Positions 28,867-54,840 of a stretch of DNA of 61,032 bases are shown in pieces (positions within the stretch are counted from its first letter, which is position 1; each line of letters starts with the position of its first letter). The stretch comes from an uncultured delta proteobacterium (GTDB lineage Bacteria > Desulfobacterota > WTBG01 > CAIYCZ01): NCBI GenBank assembly GCA_963803975.1, contig CAWDOY010000035.1, forward strand, positions 1-61,032, written 5' to 3'. A program made the translations under genes and the position numbers. The notes below the pieces were generated by a model. The model was not told the origin of the DNA. It saw only the letters and a list, made by a program, of their open reading frames with translations, and searched no databases.

Positions 28867-31005
28867 ATGAGGCACATTATGCAGGAACTTCCCAAAACCA
28901 TACACAAGCGCGATGATGCACTGGTCAGCTTTGATGAGCAGAAAATCAAACGGGCGATCTTCAGGGCCGGGCTTGAAGCCCTGGAAGATGAGCAAAAGGC
29001 CCGCGCCATAGCTGAGCTCACCGGCAGCAGGGTCCTGGAAAAAATCAGCACGCTGTATGCTGATACCATTCCCTCGGTAGAGAATATCCAGGACCTGGTT
29101 GAAGAAGTGTTAATGGCAGAGGGCTACACGGCGGTAGCACGAAGCTATATCCTCTACCGTGAAGAACACAAGTATCTGCGGCAGGCAAAAAAAATCTACG
29201 GCATCCGCGATGACCTGAAGCTGCCCCTGAACGCCCTGTTTGTGCTCAAAAAACGCTATCTGCTGAAGGATGATAACCAGAGCGTTGTTGAAACTCCGGG
29301 AGAGCTGTTCCAGCGGGTTGCAAAAGCCATCAGCGAAGCTGAGCTTAATTTCCCGTCAGCTCAGCGCAGGGAAGAAGTTGAAGAAACTTTTTTGCAGATG
29401 ATGACCGCGCTTGAGTTCATGCCCAACTCCCCCACCCTCATGAACGCGGGGACGGCACTGGGTCAGCTGTCAGCCTGTTTTGTCCTGCCGGTCGAAGATT
29501 CCATCCCCGGCATCTTTGAGACCTTGAAAAACATGGCCCGCATTCATCAGAGCGGCGGCGGCACCGGGTTTGATTTTTCCCGCCTCAGGCCGCGGGGCGA
29601 TCTTGTCAGCACCACCAAGGGTGAGGCGTCCGGGCCGGTCTCGTTCATGAGCATCTTCAACCAGGCAACCGGCATCATTGTCCAGGGCGGCAGGCGTCGT
29701 GGCGCCAATATGGGCATCCTGCGCTGCGACCACCCCGACATTTTTGACTTCATTCAGGCAAAACTGAATGACGGTGCTTTTGCCAATTTTAACCTCTCGG
29801 TCGCGGTCACTGATGCCTTCATGGAGGCGGTGCGCGCGGATGGAAACTTTGATTTACTCAACCCCCGGACACGCAAGAAAGTCAAATCCGTAAAGGCGCG
29901 GTCAATATTTAACCTGCTCGTTCACTCCGCCTGGCGCTCAGGAGACCCGGGGCTGGTGTTTCTTGATGAGATCAACCGCCATAATCCCACCCCTGAGGCC
30001 GGCATGATAGAGGCCACCAATCCCTGCGGGGAGATACCCCTTTTGCCCTATGAAAGCTGCAACCTTGCCTCGATCAATCTGGCAAAATTTGTACAGGGAA
30101 AAGCCGTTGACTGGCAAAAGCTGCGGGAGCGGATCCGCTGGGGAGTGCGCTTTCTGGATAATGTGATTGAGGTAAACAAATACCCGCTGCCGCAGATACA
30201 AGATATCACCCACGCCAACCGTAAAATCGGGCTGGGCGTTATGGGCTTTGCCGATATGCTCATCAGGCTGGGCATCCCCTATACTGCCCCGGAGGCAATA
30301 ACAACCGCTGAAACGCTCATGCAGTTTTTCCACCACGAATCGCTCCATGCCTCCCAGAGCCTGGCAGAGGAGCGGGGGGTATTCCCCAACTATGAGCAGT
30401 CTGTGTATCCGGGCAAAAATCTGAGACTGCGGAATGCCACGGTTAACACGGTCGCTCCGACCGGCACCATCAGCATTATCTGCGGCTGCTCAAGCGGCAT
30501 TGAGCCCCTCTTCGCCCTGAGTTACGTGCGCAATGTGCTGTCCGGGTCAAAGCTGTTTGAGATGCATTCGCTTTTTTCCGCGGAACTCCGCCGGCGCGGG
30601 CTCTACACAAAAGAGCTGATGGCGGAAATAGGAAAATCAGGCTCAATCCGGCAGATGGAAGAGATACCGGAAGAGTTGCGACGGCTCTTTGTCATCTCTT
30701 TTGACGTGCCGCCGGAGCAGCACCTGGGGATTCAGGCCGCATTCCAGAAATATACTGACAACTCGGTCTCTAAAACCATTAACCTCCCGCCTGATGCAAG
30801 TATCGATGATGTCAGCCGCATCTACCTGCTGGCCCACGAGCTTAAGTGCAAGGGCATCACCATCTACCGCTACGGCACCCGGGAGAACCAGGTGCTCTCG
30901 TTCGGCTCACGGCCGGGTGGAGAAGGAGAGTATGAGGGCGGAGACTTTGTCACCGCCGGCTCAGAATTTGCCGGCGACTGCTTTAACGGCACCTGCCTGT
31001 TCTGA
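28867..31005 (+). CDS. nrdJ: Class II (adenosylcobalamin-dependent) ribonucleotide reductase with N-terminal ATP cone
   Basis: KRD...FDEQKI ATP cone; FMPNSPTLMNAG; SACFV; TNPCGE; APTGTIS; SKTINLP; C-terminal cysteine pair. Confidence 0.93.
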   Translation: MRHIMQELPKTIHKRDDALVSFDEQKIKRAIFRAGLEALEDEQKARAIAELTGSRVLEKISTLYADTIPSVENIQDLVEEVLMAEGYTAVARSYILYREEHKYLRQAKKIYGIRDDLKLPLNALFVLKKRYLLKDDNQSVVETPGELFQRVAKAISEAELNFPSAQRREEVEETFLQMMTALEFMPNSPTLMNAGTALGQLSACFVLPVEDSIPGIFETLKNMARIHQSGGGTGFDFSRLRPRGDLVSTTKGEASGPVSFMSIFNQATGIIVQGGRRRGANMGILRCDHPDIFDFIQAKLNDGAFANFNLSVAVTDAFMEAVRADGNFDLLNPRTRKKVKSVKARSIFNLLVHSAWRSGDPGLVFLDEINRHNPTPEAGMIEATNPCGEIPLLPYESCNLASINLAKFVQGKAVDWQKLRERIRWGVRFLDNVIEVNKYPLPQIQDITHANRKIGLGVMGFADMLIRLGIPYTAPEAITTAETLMQFFHHESLHASQSLAEERGVFPNYEQSVYPGKNLRLRNATVNTVAPTGTISIICGCSSGIEPLFALSYVRNVLSGSKLFEMHSLFSAELRRRGLYTKELMAEIGKSGSIRQMEEIPEELRRLFVISFDVPPEQHLGIQAAFQKYTDNSVSKTINLPPDASIDDVSRIYLLAHELKCKGITIYRYGTRENQVLSFGSRPGGEGEYEGGDFVTAGSEFAGDCFNGTCLF

Positions 31006-43146: not shown

Positions 43147-43250
43147 AACTTCAATGATGACTTCTTTTTGAATCTGTCACTCACTTATCCTGTGACTAAT
43201 AGCAGTAGTAGCAACCTTTTGTGAATAACCTACTACCCACAATATGTTAT
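43147..43250 (+). repeat. Hairpin repeat copy R0 (3' part, diverged), separated from its terminator by the intron
   Basis: TTCAATGATGACTTCTTTT...ATAGCAG...CCCACAATATG matches the other copies. Confidence 0.6.
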
Positions 43251-43329
43251 CGAGATCGGGTCGAGGCACGGGGATTGCGCCCCGTAACCCTCCCACACCA
43301 CCGGACGTACGATTCCGTATACGGCGGTT

Positions 43330-44060
43330 CGTGAAGTACATTGAAGTTTATGCAGTTCGTCTAACAGGCTCACGAGTCCCCTGTGACCAAAGTATTTCTT
43401 TGGGAACGCCTCGTTCATATGCGCCGCTCCCGAATTCCACTACGCTCCCCGGCCATTGAACGCTGACTTCAGAGCCCTGTCTTTCACTCGTCCTCTTGCC
43501 ATCAGTCTCGCCGCCCGTGTCCTTGCGCGCTTCCCTTGTCTCCACAGCACGCAGCGTAATCTGCGCCGTATCCACCCGTCCAGCTCATCAAAAATCCCTT
43601 TTACCCCTGCTAGCTGAAAGTATTGTACCCATCCTCTCAACACCGGGTTGAGGTCTTTCTTGATAAACCATGCCGGGTTGCGGCCTCTACCCTTGCGAAA
43701 CAGTTCCTTGAGGTTACTCATCAGCCGCTTCACCGATTCGGTTGCTACCTTAAGATGACTCTTCATGTGCAACGTCATTGAGTATCCCAGAAACTTCCTC
43801 CGCCACGGGCGGTCTACCGCACTCTTTGCCCGGCTCACGGTGAGCTTTGATTGCTCCCTCAAAAATCGGGCAAGGGAGATCGATCACTCGTTCTCCCGTG
43901 CGACCACTGCTTCCATTAACTGCATATCCCCCGGATGGGTGTTCCCTCTTCGTGCCGTGGAGCTTGACACTCTTGTCCGGGGCCATCCAGAGTTCCGCTT
44001 TCTTCCTCCCCGGCAGGTCTTGGCCATCTCAGACCGCATTGTCTGCGTCTCCTTCTCCAT
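43330..44060 (-). pseudogene. Group II intron RT/maturase remnant; RT core including YADD deleted, internal TAG
   Basis: MEAVVAREN joins directly to GERV...KLTVSRAKSAVDRPWRRKFLGY; maturase LNPVLRGWVQYF, LDGWIRRRLR; TAG at 43440. Confidence 0.9.
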
Positions 44061-44434
44061 CGAACGCTAAGGCTCCTCTCCGTGCTTCATGTTCAGGCCT
44101 TCGGCTTGGTCGCGCTCGCCTACTCTGCCCTCTGCTGACTTCTCAACGTCCTTTCCATCACCTCGTGGCGACAGTAGCACTCAGGCAGACGTTGAGACCT
44201 CCCCGGGTAATGCGACTCACCTTCACGCGTATGCCTGCCACATATACGTCCATGCTTTCCGTGTAAGTATTGGGCTTTGAAGATATACGCCTTCTCACCC
44301 AGCATGGCCGCCTCGTATGTGATTTCTGTTCGTCAGGCCAGCGCTTTGCCTGCGGCTTCCTTCAGATTCCACCTCACGATGGACACCCTTGCCGTCCGGC
44401 TAACAGTTCCCCTTACCGGGCCTGTAGGAGACTT

Positions 44435-44460
44435 GACTTCGGCTGTGCTCAGTCGAAACC
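44435..44460. repeat. REP-like palindrome inserted in intron domain I
   Basis: GACTTCGGCTGTGCTCAGTCGAAACC; related copy at 60898. Confidence 0.6.
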
Positions 44461-44496
44461 TCACTCCCCAGTGAGTGCGCCCTGCCGGGCGCACGT

Positions 44497-44526
44497 AAAA
44501 AAAGCAGGGCCATTGCTGACCCTGCC
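44497..44526 (-). terminator. Intrinsic terminator; intron target and part of the repeat unit
   Basis: Minus strand GGCAGGGTCA-GCAA-TGGCCCTGC-TTTTTTT; homologous hairpin at 51180..51207. Confidence 0.85.
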
Positions 44527-44681
44527 CTGTAATATTTGGAGTGGCCCCTTTTGTATACTATTAATATCAGGAGATATTCATCTGTGGATCAGTTTGTTAA
44601 TAGAGATGGTTCCTCTTTTGCTACATAAAGGCCGCCTGGTTTGATTTGTTAAACACCCCTAAAGATAGTTTTCGCTGCTAC

Positions 44682-45404
44682 CTATCGAAAATAACCGCCA
44701 CCCTTGCCATGCTGACCAAAACCACCAGCTTTAACTGCACGAAGAAACCCACTAACATTGTTATGACGACCAGAGCCTTTGCCAGAGCGATAATATCCGC
44801 TACCATTGCCATGGCGACCGGAGCCGCCACCGTTACCTGAGCGAAAATAGCTGCCGCCATTGCCACGGTGACCAGAGCTGCCACCCTTGCCTGAGCGAAA
44901 ATAACTGCCGCCATTATTGCCGCGGTATCCGTACCCACCACCACTTCCATGGCGATAATAGTTACCACCATTACCCCGGTATCCATAACCGCCGCCGTTG
45001 CCGTAGTCCCCATAACCCCTGTCATTATAAGAGCGATAATGATCATCGCCACCATAATTAAAAACCAAGCTCACAAGCCCAAAGAGGGACTCACACCCGT
45101 ATCCTCCATATGCACTTGTAGGAGCATAGGCTACCGGAGGAGGAACATATGCCACGGGAGGCTGAGCATAATAAACTGGTGGAGGGGCATAATACACCAC
45201 GGGAGCAGGTGTATAATAAACAACTTGGGGAGCAGCATAAGCGACTGGTGCGGGAGCATAAGCTGTTGCTGGTTGATACTGTGGTTGCATCTGGTAATTT
45301 CCCTGGGGATAAGCAGGAGGTGGAGGCAGAGTATTTCCTGCTCCAAGAGCTGCACCTGTACTGACTAAAACTACTAGGGTTAGAATCAAAACTACCTTTT
45401 TCAT
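44682..45404 (-). CDS. Secreted low-complexity protein (Pro/Tyr/Ala/Val repeats then Gly/Arg/Tyr repeats)
   Basis: Signal peptide; (Y)APPPVYY-type repeats; GNGGSYFRSG-type repeats; GAGGTG RBS. Confidence 0.75.
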   Translation of the reverse strand: MKKVVLILTLVVLVSTGAALGAGNTLPPPPAYPQGNYQMQPQYQPATAYAPAPVAYAAPQVVYYTPAPVVYYAPPPVYYAQPPVAYVPPPVAYAPTSAYGGYGCESLFGLVSLVFNYGGDDHYRSYNDRGYGDYGNGGGYGYRGNGGNYYRHGSGGGYGYRGNNGGSYFRSGKGGSSGHRGNGGSYFRSGNGGGSGRHGNGSGYYRSGKGSGRHNNVSGFLRAVKAGGFGQHGKGGGYFR

Positions 45405-45432
45405 GGTTCACCTCACTGTTAAAATGTTGCAG

Positions 45433-46053
45433 TTATTGTGGGCAGCGTTCTCCGCTGCCTTCTGACTGGGCGGTAAACAGGCTCATGATATGAGAATGAA
45501 TAGCCTCAGTCGTAGAAATCTCTTCATCAGCAGATTTTGACAACTGCTGAATTACTTTTCTCTGGGAAAAATGAAACATGAGGATTGCCGGTAGGGTCAG
45601 TGCGCACAGGTCATAATTGAGCGAAGAACGAAAAGCCCCGGCTTGCGCCCCATCCCTGAAAAATACTGCCATCTGCTCATGGATTTTAGATAAATGTTTT
45701 TCGGTCAAAAGATCGAGAAACCGGCCGTTACCGGCTGTCTCGCGCTGGAATAGCTGAAGCATCTCCGGACTGGTGCGAAAGGATTCATCATAGTAATCAA
45801 TCACCATGCGGAGAATCTGCAAATGGTCGCGGGGGGCAGTGAGAATATCCTGGAGGCGGTTGTAAAACCGTTCCACCTGTGATTCTATCAGGTACAGGTA
45901 GAGGTCTTTCTTATTCTTGAAGTGGTAATAGATCATGGGTTTGGTGAGCTGCGCTGCCTGAGCAATACCATCCATGGAAGCCCCGTCGTAGCCTTTTTGA
46001 GCAAAAACCCTGATTGCTGCCTTTATAATTTTTTCTTTTGAAGTCAGCGTCAT
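45433..46053 (-). CDS. TetR/AcrR family transcriptional regulator
   Basis: IIKAAIRVFAQKGYDGASMDGIAQAAQLTKPMIYYHFKNKKDLY. Confidence 0.95.
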   Translation of the reverse strand: MTLTSKEKIIKAAIRVFAQKGYDGASMDGIAQAAQLTKPMIYYHFKNKKDLYLYLIESQVERFYNRLQDILTAPRDHLQILRMVIDYYDESFRTSPEMLQLFQRETAGNGRFLDLLTEKHLSKIHEQMAVFFRDGAQAGAFRSSLNYDLCALTLPAILMFHFSQRKVIQQLSKSADEEISTTEAIHSHIMSLFTAQSEGSGERCPQ

Positions 46054-46065
46054 ATCTATTCTCCC

Positions 46066-46081
46066 TACTTACTAGTAAGTA
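46066..46081. promoter_or_regulatory. Palindromic TetR-type operator O1
   Basis: Perfect palindrome TACTTACTAGTAAGTA adjoining the RBS of the TetR gene. Confidence 0.75.
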
Positions 46082-46230
46082 TTTAATAAAATTTAAAATA
46101 TTTGTTAAGTCAGATTACATATAAGCAACCCAATGGCTCAGCAAGATAAATATATGTATGTTATTACATTTATTTATATTATTTGTCGGCATATTAATAT
46201 GCTGGTATTATCACTGTTAATATTATTACT

Positions 46231-46272
46231 TACTTACTGGTAAGTAATAATGCATAAAACAAAACTTGTCAA
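46231..46272 (-). promoter_or_regulatory. TetR gene promoter overlapped by operator O2
   Basis: Minus strand TTGACA-17-TATTAC; O2 TACTTACTGGTAAGTA at 46231..46246. Confidence 0.7.
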
Positions 46273-46583
46273 GTGGATTATTTAAAAAACGGTACCTGTA
46301 GGATTTTTTGTAATTGGGCGAGGATAGTCAGTATAGAGCATTTAGTTTTCTGATATCTTATTATTATAATGGATACCTGCTAAGTGTCACCACATCGTGG
46401 CAACATCGGGATGTCAGGATATGGCAATATGCATAGTTGTTATCTGAGTTTGTAATCAAATTCCTCAACTCAGAAATACATTTAGTTTTTGTTCTTTGCA
46501 TCAATAATTAATTTGAATAGGTCTGGGGATATTACTAAAGAGGAATATTTATCAAGATATTGTGTCGCTAATTAACTAATTGT

Positions 46584-46795
46584 GAGTATAGTCTTCGTGC
46601 CAGATATCATGGTGGGCATTATATGCAGAAAACTGCAGCTTATGTATCAGCTGCGAGAAAAGTGAGTCAACCAAAATTCATTGCACACTTCTTTTGTAAA
46701 GCGTCACTGGCAGCTCAAAAAAATCATAGCAGAATGTTGCAATTTTTATGAAGAACCAGTAACCACAATACATAGACACAAAAAAAGCAGGGACA
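46584..46795 (+). repeat. Hairpin repeat copy R1
   Basis: CTTCGTGCCAGAT...TATGTATCAG...GCGAG...AAATTCATTGCACACTTCTTTTG...ATAGCAGAATGTT...AACCACAAT...AAAAAAGCAGGG. Confidence 0.9.
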
Positions 46796-47725
46796 TTAAT
46801 TACCTTGTTTTGCAGATGTGAGGCGGGTGAATGAGTAATCCGGGCCATAGGCTTTTATGTCATATTCGACTGCAATCAGCCGGTTACCCTGCAATTTAAA
46901 CACGATTCGGTCCGGATTAATGTATTCACCGTTTTTCTGCGTCACCAATACTGCCAGGAGTTTTTTCTCCAACGACCAGACGCCGGCCTGCTTTACTGTC
47001 CCCTGAGAGTATCTGGACTGCAGTTCTATGCTGTTGTCACTCAGCACATGCAGGGTCTCTGTGATGGTGCCGCCGGCGCCGGTGAAGCATCGCGTATAGG
47101 TGCCAAGGTACGCCTTTGGATCACCAATAGACGGGGGCAATAACGAATCTTCCTCAGCCCGGACAGCTGGTTGCGTATCTGTCATCTCCACAATAATGTC
47201 AGCATAGTTTGCATATCCATGGGTGATGACAAAGCAAGGTGACCTGTTTATAAAAGCCGGTTGACCATTGCGCAAAACGCGCGCCTGAATTGAATATTGA
47301 TGGGCAGGATTGATCTTGGCCGGATCGTAGGCAAGTTTAAATGAAATTGGCATCTGATTAGTTGGAGTAATTTTATTTTGTGCGATAACAACAGGGGGTG
47401 AGTTCTGTGCAGAGACGTCCAGAAGCTGCACTTCTACTATATCGCTCGGCAGCATCGCGATGCGCTGCCAGTAAGCAACTGTTCCCCTGACACTGGCAGT
47501 CATTCCGGGTGGCTCAGCGTGTTTCTTGTGTGATGGTTTACCCGTCAGCAGGCCCGTGTCTTCCTGCCCTGACTGGTACCTCCATATTTCAAACATCATG
47601 TCAGAACCAGTTTCACCGCCAAAACCTGCATGAGGCAGAAGAAAGCTCATGGCTACCGCAAGGGCTGCCGTACCCAGTAGTGCAGTCTGTCTTTTCCGGT
47701 AAATACTGTTAGAGAAAAACCCCAT
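46796..47725 (-). CDS. YbaY/YscW-domain exported protein with an extra C-terminal domain
   Basis: VRGTVAYWQRIAMLPSDIVEVQLLDVS, QMPISFKLAYDPAKINPAHQYSIQARV. Confidence 0.85.
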   Translation of the reverse strand: MGFFSNSIYRKRQTALLGTAALAVAMSFLLPHAGFGGETGSDMMFEIWRYQSGQEDTGLLTGKPSHKKHAEPPGMTASVRGTVAYWQRIAMLPSDIVEVQLLDVSAQNSPPVVIAQNKITPTNQMPISFKLAYDPAKINPAHQYSIQARVLRNGQPAFINRSPCFVITHGYANYADIIVEMTDTQPAVRAEEDSLLPPSIGDPKAYLGTYTRCFTGAGGTITETLHVLSDNSIELQSRYSQGTVKQAGVWSLEKKLLAVLVTQKNGEYINPDRIVFKLQGNRLIAVEYDIKAYGPDYSFTRLTSAKQGN

Positions 47726-48006
47726 ATTCTCTGCTTATACATTAATACAATTATTTTTTAAACTGCTCCGACCATCAGAAATCTTTGACAGAATATCAGC
47801 ACGATACTATATGGATATTTAAAGCTAAGTCAATGATGTTCTTGATTGCTGATTTTTAAAGAATGGATTTTTTTATGCGCTATATGTGCTCCGTGAAGCT
47901 CTGGCCTATTGAGCCCTCTGAAATGGCTCGGTATATCTTTGGGATTAATAGCAAATGAAAATGCATATAGGCGATGATTCACCATCAAAATAAAGAAAAA
48001 TTGGCC

Positions 48007-48228
48007 GGAACTTGCTTTGGGATGAAGGAAGTATAGGACTGGTGCGATTGTACGTCAATAAGGAATCCGTCGAAAGATATGAGCAGGAATCAACCGGACA
48101 AAAATCAACATCTTGTGGAGAGTTTAAAGAGGAAAAGTGCAGACTTTGTATCAGCAGCGATAGAAGTTTAGCAGCTTAAATTCAATGACTACTTCATCTG
48201 TAAAGAATTAGTGGCGGGTAAAAAAAGC
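48007..48228 (+). repeat. Hairpin repeat copy R2 with promoter-bearing 5' extension; 3' arm truncated
   Basis: Shares about 100 bp of 5' extension with R5; core CAACATCTTGTGG...TGTATCAGCAGCGA...AAATTCA...ACTTC. Confidence 0.85.
48030..48058 (-). promoter_or_regulatory. sigma70 promoter carried by R2
   Basis: Minus strand TTGACG-17-TATACT. Confidence 0.75.
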
Positions 48229-48242
48229 AATGGTATTCATGA

Positions 48243-48434
48243 TTAACATTGAGCAATCTTTTGAAGAATCGTTTCTGCTTCATCATCCCTAACAGCATGC
48301 TTTCTCTTACATTCAGGACATATACCTATATAAGATATGGCATCATTCTTTTTCCCTGCTATCAAAAGACAAAGTAAAATTATTCCCAAAGACGCACCAG
48401 AAACAAGACCTATAATAAAACTAAAAACTATCAT
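48243..48434 (-). CDS. Small membrane protein (DUF3789-like) with CxxC
   Basis: FIIGLVSGASLGIILLCLLIAGK helix; CPEC. Confidence 0.6.
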   Translation of the reverse strand: MIVFSFIIGLVSGASLGIILLCLLIAGKKNDAISYIGICPECKRKHAVRDDEAETILQKIAQC

Positions 48435-48559
48435 TATTTAACTCAAAGATATTAGCCTCTCCTGTTTTAAGTATGACACATACAAACAAGAGGAGCAAAT
48501 CACCAAAAATAAAAGAGCGGTCTATCAAGGGAATGTTGTGCTGCGGGAAGTAAACTTAA

Positions 48560-48764
48560 GAATGTAGACTTCGTGCCAGATGTTGTGGTGGGTATTAGAG
48601 GCGAGAAAGTGAAGCTTATGTATCAACAGCGAGAGTAGTGAGTCAGTCGAAATTCATTGCACATTTCTTTTGCAAACCGTCAATGGCAGGCAAAAAAATC
48701 ACAGCAGAATGTTACTCTTTTTCTGATTAATCATTAACCACAATTCATATCCGCAAAAGGGGAC
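48560..48764 (+). repeat. Hairpin repeat copy R3
   Basis: CTTCGTGCCAGATGTTGTGGTGGGTATTAG ... AACCACAATT. Confidence 0.9.
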
Positions 48765-48776
48765 TTTGCTCGGGCA

Positions 48777-49547
48777 TCAGGCAGGAAATAACAGATCAGA
48801 TATGTGCGCCAGCGTTATATTGGAATTTTTAAGGACGCTAAGGAAAAGTCGTATGGCCCGGGCTGTCTCAGGGAAAGGATGCCCGATGCCGATCGCATGA
48901 CCATATTTATTCGCGTGGTCCGCAAGCTTGTTTAATTGATAAAGAATAGCCAGCTCATTCAGTTCATTATCCAGAAAAATGTTTCTGCAGGCAGCAGGCA
49001 TCTGCAGCTGTTTTGCAATATGATAGCCTTTCGAGTTGGGGGAAGTAAGGCTATCCACAAAGAACAGTCCTTTTTGTTTAATAAGCTCAAGGGTCTCCCG
49101 TATTTCTCGCTGGCAAGCGGTAAACCGTGAGCCCATGTGATTATTAAGACCTATGGCAAACGGAACAGCGGAAAGATTTTCCTCCAGCACGCGGAAAATC
49201 TTATGCAGGCCGTCTCCTACATACAGCGCTCCCGGCCCGGGATTGGCTTCAGAAGCATATGGCTCCATGGGCTGATGGAGCATGATATCGTGGCCCGCGT
49301 CATGCGCTTCAAAAGCAAGCTCTTCTGAGTGAGGATAGAGCGGCAGGATTGAGAAGGTTAGCGGAATATTTAATTCCAGAAACTGCCGTGCTCTATAAAT
49401 ATTCGGGCCTATGTCATCGATGATAAGGGCGATTGCGGGTTTTGCGAAGGAACTGCTGCTGGCAAAGGCTTTTGTGAAGCTGTTGAACCCAAAGAGGTTG
49501 CCCAACAAAAAAGAGACGCTATTATATAAAAACTTTCTTCTATCCAT
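48777..49547 (-). CDS. Divergent polysaccharide deacetylase family protein (YibQ-like), Tat-like signal
   Basis: MDRRKFL; IALIIDDIG, LHQPMEP, NNHMGSRFT, FVDSLT, RNIFLDN, AIGIGHP. Confidence 0.92.
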   Translation of the reverse strand: MDRRKFLYNSVSFLLGNLFGFNSFTKAFASSSSFAKPAIALIIDDIGPNIYRARQFLELNIPLTFSILPLYPHSEELAFEAHDAGHDIMLHQPMEPYASEANPGPGALYVGDGLHKIFRVLEENLSAVPFAIGLNNHMGSRFTACQREIRETLELIKQKGLFFVDSLTSPNSKGYHIAKQLQMPAACRNIFLDNELNELAILYQLNKLADHANKYGHAIGIGHPFPETARAIRLFLSVLKNSNITLAHISDLLFPA

Positions 49548-49728
49548 TCTCTTGTTTGTTTCAAGCCAATGGGGTTAACGGGAAAAAGACAAGTGTAGAT
49601 TAATTGAAGTCCGAAATACAGTATATAGTGGGTCATGTCAAGAATAAATACTATATATGGATAAAACAATGAAATTGGTACATAATTGAGGAGTTTGTAG
49701 CGGTTCAAAAGAAAGTGGACAAATGCAG

Positions 49729-49930
49729 GGACAAAAATCAACATCTTGGGGTAAGCGTCAAAGGTAAGAAAGTGTAGCTTATGTATCAACAGCGAGAGAA
49801 GTTTAGCAGCTTAAATTCATTGATGACTTCTTTATGACTTCTTTTGCAAAGCGTTACTGGTAGTCATGGTAGTCAAATAAAATATAGCAGAATTAGTTAC
49901 TTTTTGTTAATAATCAGCCGCATACAATTC
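49729..49930 (+). repeat. Hairpin repeat copy R4 with two internal tandem duplications
   Basis: Core motifs present; ATGACTTCTTT x2 (49823..49844), TGGTAGTCA x2 (49858..49875). Confidence 0.88.
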
Positions 49931-50030
49931 TGCGGGCGGCGGCCGTTTCTGTACCTCCCACAGACCGACATGCTGCAATATCGCCTTGATTACCTTGGTC
50001 TGGTCTATAACGATTATTGAGCTTTCAAGC

Positions 50031-50861
50031 TTACAGCGAGCCCTCCGGAATCAGTTCGAGCACCTGTTCCCGCCGCTCAGTACTTAGTACCGGCAGAAAG
50101 TACGCCGCAATCACCAGGCCGGCATAATACTCGGAGAGGGTCGCATAGGTTACTTCATTGTCGGCATCAAGCCTGTAAAAGCCCATGTATCGTGATGTCC
50201 CGATAGAGGGCATGAAAAAGCCACCATAAAAGATGATCTGCCGGATTATGGTATCATCGGTTTTGTAGTAAAAAAGATTGCCGTCAGTGCCGGAATTGAC
50301 GTGTTGAAAAACCGTCGGGCCGGCGCTGATCTTCAATCCCCTGATAATAGGTTTCCAGTCGGGCAGCTCTTCCGTGTAGGGCGCCTGGTCATAGGTGGTC
50401 TTCCCTGCGTTCAGCAGTTCTTCAACCGCCACATAGCGGAACATGTCATACATGATCATGTCCATCAGTGTTGCATAGATTTTAAATGAATCCAGGCTCG
50501 CATGCTCAAAGCTGCTGAGATTATCCATCACGCCCGCCAAATCGTCGTGGACGGAAACCGTTACGGTAAAGCCCGGAAAGTCCGGAAAATCATGCCAGCT
50601 GAGCTGGTCTTTCGAGCTCACGGGGCTAGCAATTTCGAAGTCATACATGGTATAGCGGTTGGCGCCGTCTTGCTGCCGATCGTGATTATAAAAAGCCCGG
50701 TAGCCGCTGACCGACTTGGTTGTGCCAATGGCATTGCCGCTGTACGTAACGGTCGTGATCTTAAAGTTCCGGACGCCCTGCGCCAAACAGATGCCGGAAA
50801 CAGCGATCGTTATGCTGATTGCCAGCACAATGAGAATCATCCTGCGAAAGTTCTGCTGCAT
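50031..50861 (-). CDS. Hypothetical exported protein
   Basis: Signal peptide, AAGGAGG RBS, 276-aa open frame. Confidence 0.75.
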   Translation of the reverse strand: MQQNFRRMILIVLAISITIAVSGICLAQGVRNFKITTVTYSGNAIGTTKSVSGYRAFYNHDRQQDGANRYTMYDFEIASPVSSKDQLSWHDFPDFPGFTVTVSVHDDLAGVMDNLSSFEHASLDSFKIYATLMDMIMYDMFRYVAVEELLNAGKTTYDQAPYTEELPDWKPIIRGLKISAGPTVFQHVNSGTDGNLFYYKTDDTIIRQIIFYGGFFMPSIGTSRYMGFYRLDADNEVTYATLSEYYAGLVIAAYFLPVLSTERREQVLELIPEGSL

Positions 50862-50908
50862 GGTATCCTCCTTTATGCGGCTAAGAAATTACAGTTTGAT
50901 ATTTGTTA

Positions 50909-51207
50909 GGAACTCGCTTTCGAATGAAGGAAGTATAGGCTAGTGATGATTGTGTGTCAATAATCCGTTAAAAAATATGGGCAGGGGGTGTCCGGATAAA
51001 AATCAACCTCTTGTGGTGGGTATTAGATGAAGGAAAGTGCAGACTATGTATCAGCAGCGAGAGAAGTGAGTCAACCTAAATTCATTGCACACTTCTTTTG
51101 CAAAGCATCACTGGGCAGCTCAAAAAATCATAGCAGTAAGCGCACATTTTCACTAATAATGGCTCACCACAATATCTAGAAAAAGCAGGACCATCGCTGA
51201 CCATGCC
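50909..51207 (+). repeat. Hairpin repeat copy R5, the most complete unit (promoter, hairpin, terminator)
   Basis: TTGTGGTGGG/CTCACCACAA outer stem, GCGAGAGAAGTG/CACTTCTTTTGC inner stem, terminator at 51180..51207. Confidence 0.92.
50932..50960 (-). promoter_or_regulatory. sigma70 promoter carried by R5
   Basis: Minus strand TTGACA-17-TATACT. Confidence 0.8.
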
Positions 51208-51413
51208 TCTGAGGTGTTATGTGATTTAGTCTATTGTTAGTTCCATATCTCAAAACATAAAATAAAATTGTCACTTTTTTATCCATGTTTTTGAGATGGC
51301 ATTGCAAATTCTGCTGTAAGTGTCATAATAAACTTAAATGCTATCATAATAGTGGACAAATAGAGTTTGGAGGGGGAGATCAATAATCAGGATCCAATGG
51401 AAGTGAGTGGATT

Positions 51414-51569
51414 ATGACGGTAGAGCAGTTTACAACAAATCAAAATATTACCCTTACATTACAAAAGGATCAGGCTGAACAACTGAATGCGGAACTCAAG
51501 GTAAAAGAACTCTTACATGAAATTAAGCAGATGTTAATTGTGCACCAGTCAGATTTTCTCTGGCGATAG
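51414..51569 (+). CDS. Possible 51-aa small protein
   Basis: ATG...TAG, MTVEQFTTNQNITLTLQKDQAEQLNAELKVKELLHEIKQMLIVHQSDFLWR, coiled-coil-like; weak RBS. Confidence 0.3.
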   Translation: MTVEQFTTNQNITLTLQKDQAEQLNAELKVKELLHEIKQMLIVHQSDFLWR

Positions 51570-51792
51570 TATGAACTCTAAGGGTTAACATCATTAAACA
51601 TGCTACCCTGTTTTAATGGGGAACTAAGAATGTAACAAAAAAATAACAGCTATTACCCCTTGTGTGGACACTGGTTTCTGTCTCTTTAAATATAACATAT
51701 AAGTCTTTTGAGGTGTGTTGTCCCCCTCCACAAGGGGCACTTTTTCTCAGTTAACTAACTATCACTTACGGTTTTTTAATTTATTTCACCAA

Positions 51793-51936
51793 AAAAGGAT
51801 TGATGCTTTTTCTCGGCTGTGCGCGGATTAATGCAAAGTCTTTGCGGTGATACAATAGTGTATAGAAACTGCATTGATAGCTTTTCATTACACGGCAGCT
51901 AGGGATATTTAGACCTTCACCTGCATCAATCCTTTT
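51793..51936 (+). ncRNA. Candidate 144-nt long-hairpin RNA
   Basis: Perfect 14-bp closing stem AAAAGGATTGATGC/GCATCAATCCTTTT with nested stems TCTCGGCTGT/GCAGCTAGGGA and TTAATGCA/TGCATTGA. Confidence 0.4.
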
Positions 51937-52281
51937 CTTTTAGATAATTAAATTGTTATGCCCCTATAAGAGAGTTTATTTGTAGTCAGATGCGCGCCGT
52001 TGTAGTTCTTCACAATGTAATAATGCTCTCACAGCAACAGGTTCTTCATTTAACGATGATAGCGCTCAATATTTCCCTGCATCATCGGGTGATACGGCTT
52101 ACTTAAAATAAATAATTAAGCAACATGAATACGCTTTACACATATCTGCGAACAGACTTGAATATTGGAGCACATTTTAATAATGATCAACTGCACAAAC
52201 AGTGTTTGTAATATGTGAAAAGGAACATGAAATAGACCATTCCGCACGATCAATAAAAAAAGAATAGAGTAAGGTAGTTGC

Positions 52282-52902
52282 ATGAAGGTTAATAATTTAC
52301 GATACGCATTTCCCCGCCTATCCAATATCATTTCCATTTTTATAGTCATACAAGCAGCTCTTGTTTGTATCGTTACTGCTGCATATGCTGGTCAGGTTAC
52401 CTTAGGCTGGGAGCCAAACACAGAACCAGACCTTGCAGGTTATAAAATCTACGATGGTATTTCTTCAGGAAATTATACCCAAATCAAGGATGTCAAAGAC
52501 AAAACCGCTGCCTCGTGCATTATTACTGGCCTGATAGAGGGACAAACCTATTATTTTGCAGCAACTGCGTATAACACCAGTGGTTTGGAGAGCAATTATT
52601 CTGCAGAAGTTTTTTGCACAATTAACCCTGCAACAACCAGTGCATCGACTACCACGACGACAAATCCAAATAATCCCGCGGCAGCTTGTCAGCATAAAGC
52701 AGGAGATCTTGACTCAAACGGTATGGTAACCATTAATGAACAGGTTGCTGTCGTGAGAATGTATCTGGGGCTGGACCCTGTAAATTCATTGTCTGATATA
52801 GATAATGACGGGGTGGTTCAGATCTGGGATGTAATAAAGATAACCAATTGCTACCTGGAGCCAAATGGCGAGTCAAGGAGGAAGATTTGGGGTAGTGATT
52901 AA
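52282..52902 (+). CDS. Secreted fibronectin type III plus dockerin-like protein; C-terminus replaced by the end of the inserted element
   Basis: VTLGWEPNTEPDLAGYKIY...YYFAATAYNTSGLESNYS; GDLDSNGMVTINE...DIDNDGVVQIWDV. Confidence 0.85.
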   Translation: MKVNNLRYAFPRLSNIISIFIVIQAALVCIVTAAYAGQVTLGWEPNTEPDLAGYKIYDGISSGNYTQIKDVKDKTAASCIITGLIEGQTYYFAATAYNTSGLESNYSAEVFCTINPATTSASTTTTTNPNNPAAACQHKAGDLDSNGMVTINEQVAVVRMYLGLDPVNSLSDIDNDGVVQIWDVIKITNCYLEPNGESRRKIWGSD

Positions 52903-53648
52903 GTATTTTCATGATGAATGATCTCCACATACTGTTTTACAAGGTACGTTGAAAGAGCTGTAACCAGATGAATATATTCGATATCAGGATTTTGCTCATA
53001 AACCGTTTTTACTCGGTGGTAGTCATTCAGATAACGATCAACAGCCTTTTGAGAATGACTGGTTTCTCTGGCAACATCGGCAGGGTCCTTTTTTTCAATA
53101 ATCACTTTGCGCAGAATCAGGGCTTTGTGTGATACCCCGGTGCCGATATCGTGCAAAAGGCCGGTATGAGGCAGCTGGCAAGAATGTTCTTTCTCATAGG
53201 CAATTCTCAGAGACGATGCCGTGGATGGATCTCTGAGGGTTAACAGACCGATATCTCTGGTAGAGAGAATGCCACCCTGATCGTAGGCTTCCTTGATTAT
53301 CCGGGCAATGGCAGAGCGAGTGATTACTGACATGGGGATGCCATTGGCCAGCTGATCGATATCCTGGGGTGTAATGATTGACAAGATCACCGGGACATAG
53401 GATCGTTTTTCCGATGTGGCGCGGGTATTTTTATTCAGGGCATTCCAGAGCACTTGGCCGGGTTTAAGCCTGCTTTTCTCGGGGCAGAGGTTTTCAAAGA
53501 TTGCAAGAAGTTGCTCAGAAAGCTTTTCACGCATGACCGGCCCAAAGAACCGGGGAAACTCCCGGGCAAAGAACTGTTCGATGACGGATTTTAGGAACCG
53601 CTGCCGTGCTGAGCTGTATCTGGTATGGCAGAGAGGTTTTTTAATCAT
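52899..53648 (-). CDS. DUF1670-like protein (ORF2)
   Basis: LKPGQ, EAYDQGGILSTRDI, LPHTGLLHDIG.GVSHK, IARETSHS-type HTH; AGGGAGG RBS before ATG 53648. Confidence 0.8.
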   Translation of the reverse strand: MIKKPLCHTRYSSARQRFLKSVIEQFFAREFPRFFGPVMREKLSEQLLAIFENLCPEKSRLKPGQVLWNALNKNTRATSEKRSYVPVILSIITPQDIDQLANGIPMSVITRSAIARIIKEAYDQGGILSTRDIGLLTLRDPSTASSLRIAYEKEHSCQLPHTGLLHDIGTGVSHKALILRKVIIEKKDPADVARETSHSQKAVDRYLNDYHRVKTVYEQNPDIEYIHLVTALSTYLVKQYVEIIHHENT

Positions 53649-53676
53649 GGGTACCTCCCTGATCAGGAATGATGAT

Positions 53677-54465
53677 TCAGTTTTTTTTAAAGAAGGACTC
53701 CAGTTCCTTTTTGCGATGAGCAACAATGGCAGCGCTGTTGTACAGCTGGTAATACTGCTCAGCCAGGCGGACGGAAATCTTAACCAGGAAGCTGATGGTA
53801 TGGATATCGAAGTCCTGCTTTGCCAGGGCGACGATGCGTTTAAATTTACTCACGTAGTTTTGCACGGAGGGTATGCTGTGATGGGTGGTGTGAGCGATTT
53901 GTTCGTATTCTTTCCCCTGAAGCCATTGCTTAATAATCAGTGCGCGGTGGGAAATGGCGCGGCCCATGTCTTTAATGGTTGAGCGAAGCGGTAAGATAAT
54001 GTTTTGGGTTCGTAAAACGCACAGATCTCTGGACAGGGTTCGTTCACCACAGTTGAGCAGTCGGTTGGCAAGGTCTTCCACGGTCAGGAGTCCTCCTTGC
54101 TGGAACGCTTCGTGGGCAAGGCGTTGCATTCTATGGTGCCGCAGGCCGGCAATGCCCTGATGCTGTTTGATTTCCAGGTCTTCATCACCGGCATCCAGGG
54201 TAAGCGCGACGGTTGTTTGTTCACATTCACCCAGCGGGGCATTGGAAGCGGCTTCGGTAGCCACAACTTGGAAGAGCAGTTGTCCGGGTTTAAGGGCCGC
54301 TGAAGTTTCAAAGTAGGAGGCATAGACCTTATATACAGCTTCAAGAATGGCCTGAGCTTCAAACGGAGAGCATTGAAGACCGTTGATGATTGCATTTACG
54401 AACTGTTGATCAAGTTGTTTTTGGGCAAGACGATTCCATTTTTGCAAAGAGGTATTGTTGATCAT
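53677..54465 (-). CDS. DUF1670-like protein (ORF1)
   Basis: LKPGQ, EAFQQGGLLTVEDLA, LPLRSTIKDMGRAISHR, IAHTTHHSIPSVQNY; GGAGG RBS. Confidence 0.8.
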   Translation of the reverse strand: MINNTSLQKWNRLAQKQLDQQFVNAIINGLQCSPFEAQAILEAVYKVYASYFETSAALKPGQLLFQVVATEAASNAPLGECEQTTVALTLDAGDEDLEIKQHQGIAGLRHHRMQRLAHEAFQQGGLLTVEDLANRLLNCGERTLSRDLCVLRTQNIILPLRSTIKDMGRAISHRALIIKQWLQGKEYEQIAHTTHHSIPSVQNYVSKFKRIVALAKQDFDIHTISFLVKISVRLAEQYYQLYNSAAIVAHRKKELESFFKKN

Positions 54466-54718
54466 GATGAACCTCCACAGGAAAAATAAAGCTATGTACC
54501 TGGCAAACTCCAGTCGGGCTACGCCCTCCTTCCGTTTGCCAGATCTATGTGGTAGATTCATCATGATTTTACACCATTTCCCCTAAAAGTATATTGCCTC
54601 TGCCTTGATTAACCAGTGGCTCCTTACAGTGCTGTGGTACTATCCAAAGAATTTACATACAAGAGTATTGCTGCATGTCGGTTCTCAAAGATGCATTTAA
54701 ATAATATTGTAGCTTTCA

Positions 54719-54840
54719 TGCCAATATATTGTGGTGAGCATTTACCGCTGAAATCTGCAGACTATGTATCAAAGTGCTCAATGGCGAACACCTTAAATAT
54801 TTTCACTTACATCTGGTAATATGCAATTGTCTGATACGAT
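54719..54840 (+). repeat. Hairpin repeat copy R6 (5' part, diverged)
   Basis: TGCCAATATATTGTGGTGAGCATT...CTGCAGACTATGTATCA...CTTAAAT...CACTT. Confidence 0.65.

Follow-up and report, generated by a model that had tools for sequence, protein, structure and literature searches.

A modular intergenic repeat of an uncultured delta proteobacterium that may provide portable homology for shuffling accessory genes

We analyzed a 61,032-nucleotide stretch of DNA from an uncultured delta proteobacterium (GenBank assembly GCA_963803975.1, contig CAWDOY010000035.1), referred to here as the window, in which an earlier sequence-only reading had noted seven related non-coding repeats (R0 to R6). Seven copies in a single orientation indeed lie at the positions first noted, and the rest of the window contains none. 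The element is real and undescribed, but it was misread as a structured RNA: the repeats are a lineage-specific DNA element found between accessory genes across the chromosome. Nor is the element limited to the ~162 bp first assigned to it, which left out the terminator hairpin at one end and, at the opposite end, the promoter modules. On the minus strand, which carries the repeat units and cargo genes of the window described below, a gene is followed by a terminator hairpin (TERM), a ~170-bp core, an exchangeable promoter module, and then the next gene.

At R5 the TERM-core-ORI unit is complete and about 305 bp long. It comprises a TERM hairpin (51179..51208), a full core with inverted 13-bp ends (51003..51179) and an ORI module (50903..50983), which resembles the right end of an IS91-family element and carries the best promoter match in the region (TTGACA-17-TATACT, 50960-50932), directed outward. 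Directly downstream of this predicted promoter is a gene for a 276-residue hypothetical protein (50031..50861). R4 is a core without its 5' box and with two short internal duplications (49738..49921). Its 3' module is of type C, a variant of the ORI linker (49694..49735), and on its other side it is fused to a fragment of an IS91-family (Y2) transposase (49934..50038; tblastn E 7e-7) corresponding to residues 379-414 of a 445-residue relative, with 64% identity. The same fusion recurs on contig C44 of the host genome (G000; 57 contigs, designated by C-numbers). A gene for a divergent polysaccharide deacetylase (48777..49547) is followed by R3, a full core (48576..48748), and by R2, a 5'-truncated core (48105..48229; model positions 47-179) joined to an ORI module (48000..48084) with the predicted outward promoter TTGACG-17-TATACT (48058-48030). 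Next come a gene for a YscW/YbaY-domain lipoprotein (46796..47725; PF09619) and R1, a full core (46600..46775) with a degenerate terminator as its 5' flank (46779-46809) and a partial extra subunit as its 3' flank. The cargo block at 44682..46053 encodes a TetR regulator (45433-46053) and a repetitive hypothetical protein (44682-45404), whose 240-residue open reading frame (ORF) contains degenerate 27/54-bp coding repeats (44674-45017) and has no Pfam match. R0 (43147..43248) is the 5' arm of a core whose middle segment is an alternative one; R6 (54721..54840) consists of a 3' arm (54721-54772) and an alternative middle segment that is also present on contig C26 and in copies from the same genus. 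R0, R2, R4 and R6 are therefore partial or carry alternative middle segments. The spans first given for R5 (51011-51172, 162 bp) and R3 (48583-48743, 161 bp) hold, and that of R1 is also 162 bp, although its left hexamer is TCATGG and not TTGTGG; the 162-bp span claimed for R4 was not confirmed, as the right-hand CCACAA box is absent and the transposase fragment occupies that side.

R0 is parted from its TERM, a G+C-rich hairpin with a T run (44498..44526), by a group II intron that retains only a remnant of the maturase domain (43249..44494; Rfam RF01998 and RF02001, PF08388) and lies between the terminator hairpin and the core box. This intron is a passenger outside the repeat, with an insertion habit that presumably resembles class IIC. 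An intron-less joint at R0 is weakly seen in sequencing run X1 (X-numbers denote sequencing runs). Group II introns recur just after the TERM hairpin or at the 5' box of the core in several independent places: besides the window copy, near 3234 in L064 (L-numbers denote loci from metagenomes and relatives, including transposase loci) and at C3:294236 and C3:296536 in the host genome.

Searching the genome and its relatives, as the sequence-only reading had proposed, revealed many further copies. A first profile search of the host genome gave 71 matches, and profiles of the separate modules gave 57 core, 33 ORI, 27 TERM, 19 type-D and 6 type-C matches. Counting only cores that cover 45 or more model positions, there are 56, spread over 25 of the 57 contigs in small co-oriented arrays, with 22 of 23 adjacent core pairs co-oriented. 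The clustering first seen in the window holds, as 36 of the 56 cores have a neighbor no more than 6 kb away, a number that averaged 7.4 and never exceeded 23 in 1000 random draws, but it is not confined to this locus: the family is dispersed genome-wide, though clustered rather than uniform and mostly without target duplications. Among the genomes of the class, 4 of 42 contain the core, as do 51 metagenome loci, and plasmid, phage and viral collections gave no match. The repeats also have no Rfam match at gathering or E-value thresholds, consistent with the earlier impression that they belong to no known family; over the window Rfam reports only the group II intron beside R0, and a permissive scan of 46400-51400 gave a single chance match outside the repeats. 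We found no description of the element in the literature searched (closed-access papers and supplements lay outside its scope).

The core alternates between invariant blocks, which keep a fixed spacing, and variable stretches of constant length, and it ends in imperfect 13-bp inverted boxes. It shows a 48-bp periodicity (0.338, compared to a mean of 0.266 and standard deviation of 0.02), with a motif that recurs at -48 and +47. No target duplication flanks 23 of the 27 full-length copies, and the other 4 have 2-3 bp. We rejected a DDE-type miniature inverted-repeat transposable element (MITE), for which inverted ends are present but this duplication is missing, and a small ORF inside the core, since the allele blocks place stops in the candidate frames as judged by eye. 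Co-orientation with the module holds for 42 of 54 genes preceding a core, 22 of 26 preceding a terminator and 29 of 33 following an ORI module. TERM precedes 9 of the 19 cores with an intact 5' end, and a promoter-type module follows 22 of the 46 with an intact 3' end (ORI in 12, type C in 5, type D in 5). The cargo is heterogeneous and accessory, and the flanks have a G+C content of 45.8% compared to 50.5%. A scan of 205 neighboring ORFs (115 of the 131 in loci from metagenomes and relatives, 90 of the 117 in host loci) yielded two transposases of the DDE type but not a single recombinase.

Another kind of promoter module, type D, also contains a ribosome-binding site, followed by a short ORF and a terminator. 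Its 19 matches share a promoter, GGAGG, an ORF of ~15-45 codons with a conserved start, and a terminator hairpin, and are found at C14:43275, C1:165957, C50:3657 and C56:30659, among other sites; the module could be a repeated leader peptide, a small RNA or a unit resembling type I toxin-antitoxin systems. Some cores have the ori end on the other side, or ends on both sides inverted, which gives divergent promoters (C25:99388-99602, C48:69942-70264, L033, L073 and L028). Others adjoin short direct repeats or the 3' fragment of a tRNA (L076 near 3900; C43:2730; C45:96850), features which we take to be typical of the ends of integrated islands.

The ORI modules of R2 and R5 are, judged by their sequence, right (oriIS-side) ends of an IS91-family element with a predicted outward sigma70 promoter. 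The transposase-distal end of IS91 is its oriIS (PMC13181058), and in ISCR1 this end carries outward promoters (PMC6218425). One relative has an ORI match 160 bp past the stop codon of a Y2 transposase, and across 74 transposase loci the ORI profile gave 45 matches at E up to 0.5; the transposases of L016 and L017 score over the cut-off for PF04986. In 17 of 17 loci, picked by hand because the C-terminus is intact and the downstream DNA long enough, the ori end lies 221-285 nt past the transposase stop and is preceded by TTGAC at a distance of 58 nt. This set excludes near-duplicates, a locus truncated by its contig end, another with a different junction and a transposase fragment on contig C30, which has no ori after its stop. 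A consensus-matching promoter is predicted in 26 of 32 ORI copies. No intact Y2 transposase was detected by PF04986 in the host genome or in a genome of the same genus (G001); transposase fragments lie beside modules on C30, C44, C45 and C56 and in the window, and 50 of the 51 metagenome core loci have no trace of a transposase. Only the ~105-bp ORI module of the unit is derived from an insertion sequence. For the whole TERM-core-ORI unit we found no terIS match among the 74 transposase loci, although the cognate element may be unsampled. In L082, L094 and L104 the ori end is directly followed by two or three tandem copies of its final ~36 bp, or by runs of short end-like motifs, which suggests repeated insertion or slippage at the end itself. 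The elements in L081-L101 show no visible fixed left end and conserve a palindrome, AGAAC-N4-GTTCT, that overlaps the promoter of the Y2 transposase and which we take to resemble an SOS box.

Gene neighbors across the repeats differ between genomes. We compared 58 of the about 610 contigs of G001 with the host genome, 18 of them selected for repeats and 40 by number. Long gaps containing a core or ORI numbered 24; in 11 neither flank was present in the host, which made them uninformative, and none of the remaining 13 kept both neighbors. Of 77 long gaps lacking both modules, 58 were left after exclusion of 19 uninformative ones, and in 26 of these 58 both neighbors were retained (Fisher p 0.0014). 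In the repeat contigs, 16 of 68 block ends fall within 120 bp of a module, while modules cover 7.1% of bases, a comparison that overstates the effect because block ends favor intergenic DNA. Blocks are also shared with more distant genomes. A genome from another genus (G002) shares 1696 bp at 95.5% identity, whereas the other blocks common to these loci are 67-85% identical, mostly 67-75%; the block begins with a core remnant, continues with ORI and a single oxidoreductase gene and ends at the terminator, and similarity falls in the next core. A block of at least 1573 bp that is 89% identical is shared with a genome from another family (G018) and also ends in a core. Within the host, the deacetylase block of the window (48744-49830) recurs at 94.5% identity on C3 with different neighbors.

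The core copies themselves are patchworks of allele blocks. Linkage between 82 variable columns in 108 copies decays to a background level (r2 of 0.13 at less than 10 bp, about 0.02 at more than 30 bp), and all four combinations of two multi-base allele blocks are present (18/4/8/19). From 98 copies with long flanks we took pairs sharing one flank only; in 8 of 10 independent pairs the change point falls inside the core, at positions 37-149 (110 bp), and in none at the 3' box. A fixed crossover at the 3' box, which had been our first impression, is contradicted by the alignments and by this mapping. A separate observation concerns two strain-like contigs that differ by a 2.85-kb insertion with an inward-facing ORI and a fragment of a core, which is present at C41:6963-9813 and absent at C40:25366-25393.

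We favor, with slightly better than even confidence, the explanation that this modular intergenic repeat provides portable homology for shuffling accessory genes by recombination and has been spread in part by rolling-circle transposition. Homologous recombination between two cores, one of them on incoming DNA or both on the same chromosome, would excise, insert or replace a promoter-gene-terminator block; genes would thus travel as self-contained expression units and land behind a ready promoter, and since the junction brings its terminator and promoter along, each gene would stay expressible after a swap. Homologous recombination at portable homology is suggested by the scattered crossovers, by the patchwork nature of the copies and by the fact that neither an integron integrase nor a resolvase was found. 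The host genome encodes ComEC. Less firmly, one-ended rolling-circle transposition from IS91-type ends may have seeded some of the new sites, with the transposase now reduced to fragments. More tentatively, and as a possibility that we think falls short of probable, the repeats could form an integrase-free chromosomal cassette system, in which a maintained ~170-bp junction makes accessory genes portable as promoter-gene-terminator units that pass between dozens of sites and between strains, genera and families, domesticated IS91-family ends supply promoters and possibly rolling-circle entry points, and NrdR-like boxes perhaps act as a gate.

Several observations weigh against the shuffling model. 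Core identity is only about 70% (median of 24 copies), which is low for efficient homologous recombination, and in the assembled contigs analyzed no circle, excision or exchange was directly observed. The sequencing runs, each with 17% or fewer of the words, give contigs that break at the repeats, and joints between repeats are explicable by other copies and are no evidence. The accessory regions are unstable anyway, as 32 of the 58 control gaps had also changed; the repeat-bearing contigs of G001 were chosen for having repeats; and the change points come from just ten pairs and a simple model of our own. The gene after the core is co-oriented in only 33 of 55 cases, no recognized module follows 24 of the 46 cores with an intact 3' end, and ORI accounts for only 12. 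The host assembly contains strain-like duplicated contigs, so the core copy counts may be somewhat inflated and some copies may be alleles. Finally, the core and TERM profiles, like that of type D, had no matches in the 74 transposase loci, and the core could not be assigned to the 3' region of an IS91-like element, the similarity not being significant (z at most 2.3 in 14 loci).

Some of these features would also be expected if the repeats were passive debris of a burst of an IS91/ISCR-like element, either a non-autonomous TERM-core-ORI mini-element or the products of one-ended transposition, with recombination as a side effect. The 33 ORI matches and the transposase fragments beside modules favor such an origin, as does the rarity of target duplications, which IS91 likewise lacks (PMC13181058). 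Likewise, IS801 yields right-end miniatures of 229-679 nt and its fragments act as recombination regions (PMC3189936; PMC6354349). Internal truncations among 165 matches number 100 at the 5' side and 23 at the 3' (ori) side, although this asymmetry may stem from alternative 5' alleles overlooked by the model. We nevertheless consider debris unlikely, because ORI follows so few of the cores, core and TERM are absent from the transposase loci, nearly all metagenome core loci lack a transposase trace, and promoters, polarity and fixed spacing are retained despite 30% divergence; moreover, 17 different 4-mers follow 20 ori ends at the presumed nick position, with no apparent conserved target tetranucleotide. 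The core could instead be the site of a site-specific recombinase or HUH enzyme acting in trans, with two inverted ~50-bp arms around a center and phased protein-binding blocks, in analogy to an integron. The invariant blocks at fixed-length spacing, the 48-bp periodicity, arms that are alike beyond the box, a box motif that also occurs inside the IS91-family end in 10 of 17 loci and several pairs that switch near the TGATACA block all agree with this idea. It is, in our estimate, a distinctly weak candidate: change points are spread across 110 bp, no integron integrase was found in the 98% complete genome (TIGR02249 best score 78 bits, cut-off 265), nor was a serine resolvase, the genome has only two full tyrosine recombinases, and the neighboring ORFs scanned encode none. 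The 8 Y1-transposase matches are at most candidate partners. A Xer/dif origin was also rejected, as the dif-like site on C3, found with an assumed dif pattern, differs from the core. Weaker still is the case for a regulatory cassette, in which the end boxes would be NrdR operators and the core a control region coupling cargo promoters to deoxyribonucleotide status, spread by duplication. The host does have nrdR, and its nrdD promoter contains a box that the end motif matches; the strict motif has 45 genome matches, 29 of them in repeats, where 15.6 were expected in all. The NrdR consensus applied to the end boxes is, however, a presumed one, the cargo is unrelated to nucleotide metabolism and gene swaps would be left unexplained. 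In ORI units two boxes lie about 33 bp apart just before the -35 element, as judged by eye, and published NrdR box pairs are spaced 31-32 bp (PMC2892513), but the two core boxes are 160 bp apart. The box was not found upstream of nrdJ or nrdR; in the window, a gene for the large subunit of a class I/II ribonucleotide reductase (29470-30867) has no operator-like box upstream.

Least credible, in our view, is the interpretation with which the sequence-only reading began, that of a multicopy structured RNA or single-stranded DNA hairpin whose fold is under selection. R5 taken alone does fold as described (z -3.35 on the plus and -1.93 on the minus strand), and 8 of 23 distinct full-length copies have z < -2.5 on the plus strand. 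A conserved, strand-specific rod was not recovered, however: the mean z of the 23 copies is -1.5 on the plus and -1.2 on the minus strand, R3 scores +0.2, the 276-nt R5 unit with its left extension scores -0.62, and without the terminal boxes the mean is -0.23, so that core interiors fold like shuffles. Pairing had also been said to survive sequence change, but across 19 full-length copies none of five measures beat shuffles, of which 97 to 386 of 500, depending on the measure, reached the observed value. Pairing reaches 90% in two inner helices, but the columns behind the well-paired helices are nearly invariant; in the two middle helices it is only 50% and 54%. RNAalifold on 19 copies gave -7.98 kcal/mol with a covariation term of -0.08. 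With no significant covariation, an outcome that the sequence-only reading had itself named as refuting, with most copies partial or mosaic, with no Rfam match and with promoter and terminator running along the opposite strand, the structured-fold interpretation is largely refuted. A single-stranded recombination substrate of the attC kind fares no better, as AAC and GTT ends occur jointly in 0 of 27 full-length copies; integrase, ends and covarying hairpin all being wanting, we rejected an attC/integron identity. What survives of the original interpretation is an undescribed repeated element with recombination as its likely theme, and not selection on a single-stranded fold; what is conserved instead is sequence blocks at fixed spacing with flanking terminator and promoter modules on the minus strand.

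One further feature of the region is distinct from the repeats. A 1725-bp insertion (52860-54584) with imperfect inverted ends of ~25 bp splits a fibronectin-III gene and holds two DUF1670 genes (52899-54564, minus strand). Runs X1 and X19 contain the empty site and X8 has the same left boundary. It looks like an unclassified insertion sequence with DUF1670 as its transposase, a family for which we found no mention in the literature searched. The gene pair was rejected as a partner of the repeats, as it is present in a single copy in the host genome, is missing from G001 and belongs to a separate insertion.

Integrons are the textbook holders of swappable-gene arrays: single co-oriented accessory genes each carry one attC repeat with AAC/GTT ends, and an integrase moves them. 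Our arrays similarly have single co-oriented accessory genes with one repeat between each and neighbors that vary among strains. They differ in having no integrase, AAC/GTT ends or covarying stem, in giving each gene its own promoter and terminator, and in crossovers that are not at one site. The enzyme-free alternative is the promoter-early stem-loop (PeSL) cassette of T4-like phages (PMC2839356, PMC4122927), and by analogy our element would work most like PeSLs, though it is not one. In both, a terminator and sigma70 promoter are repeated between accessory ORFs in variable regions, and genes are gained, lost or replaced by crossovers at varied points inside the cassette with no dedicated recombinase. 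Mini-circles have been shown for PeSLs (PMC2839356). In contrast to PeSLs, the present element occupies a bacterial chromosome in many small arrays, has no match in phage collections, places a long conserved core with inverted ends between terminator and promoter, and uses exchangeable promoter modules, one derived from an IS91 end. A bacterial chromosomal equivalent of PeSLs was not found in the literature searched. Like IS91/ISCR ends, ORI is a transposase-distal right end with an outward promoter toward variable downstream genes (PMC6218425, PMC13181058), apparently lacks target duplications and occurs without transposase (cf. PMC3189936). In contrast to these ends, it is joined to a core and terminator present in none of the autonomous elements examined, has no apparent target tetranucleotide and occurs as 33 transposase-free ends in one genome. 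BOX and MITE-like repeats are also lineage-restricted, AT-rich and modular, with short inverted ends and ~48-bp subunits near promoters (PMC3049150). About half of the pneumococcal BOX insertions are common to all strains (PMC3049150), whereas none of our repeat-bearing gaps kept both neighbors, and BOX differs further from our element in that the latter has fixed flanking terminator and promoter modules and no target duplication. If the model is right, an uncultured sediment lineage uses a repeat dedicated to homology for a genome-wide trade in cassettes and puts IS91-type ends to new use as portable promoters, as ISCR1 does to express resistance genes. The terminator-core-ori end arrangement would then provide a searchable signature for similar systems that integron finders miss.

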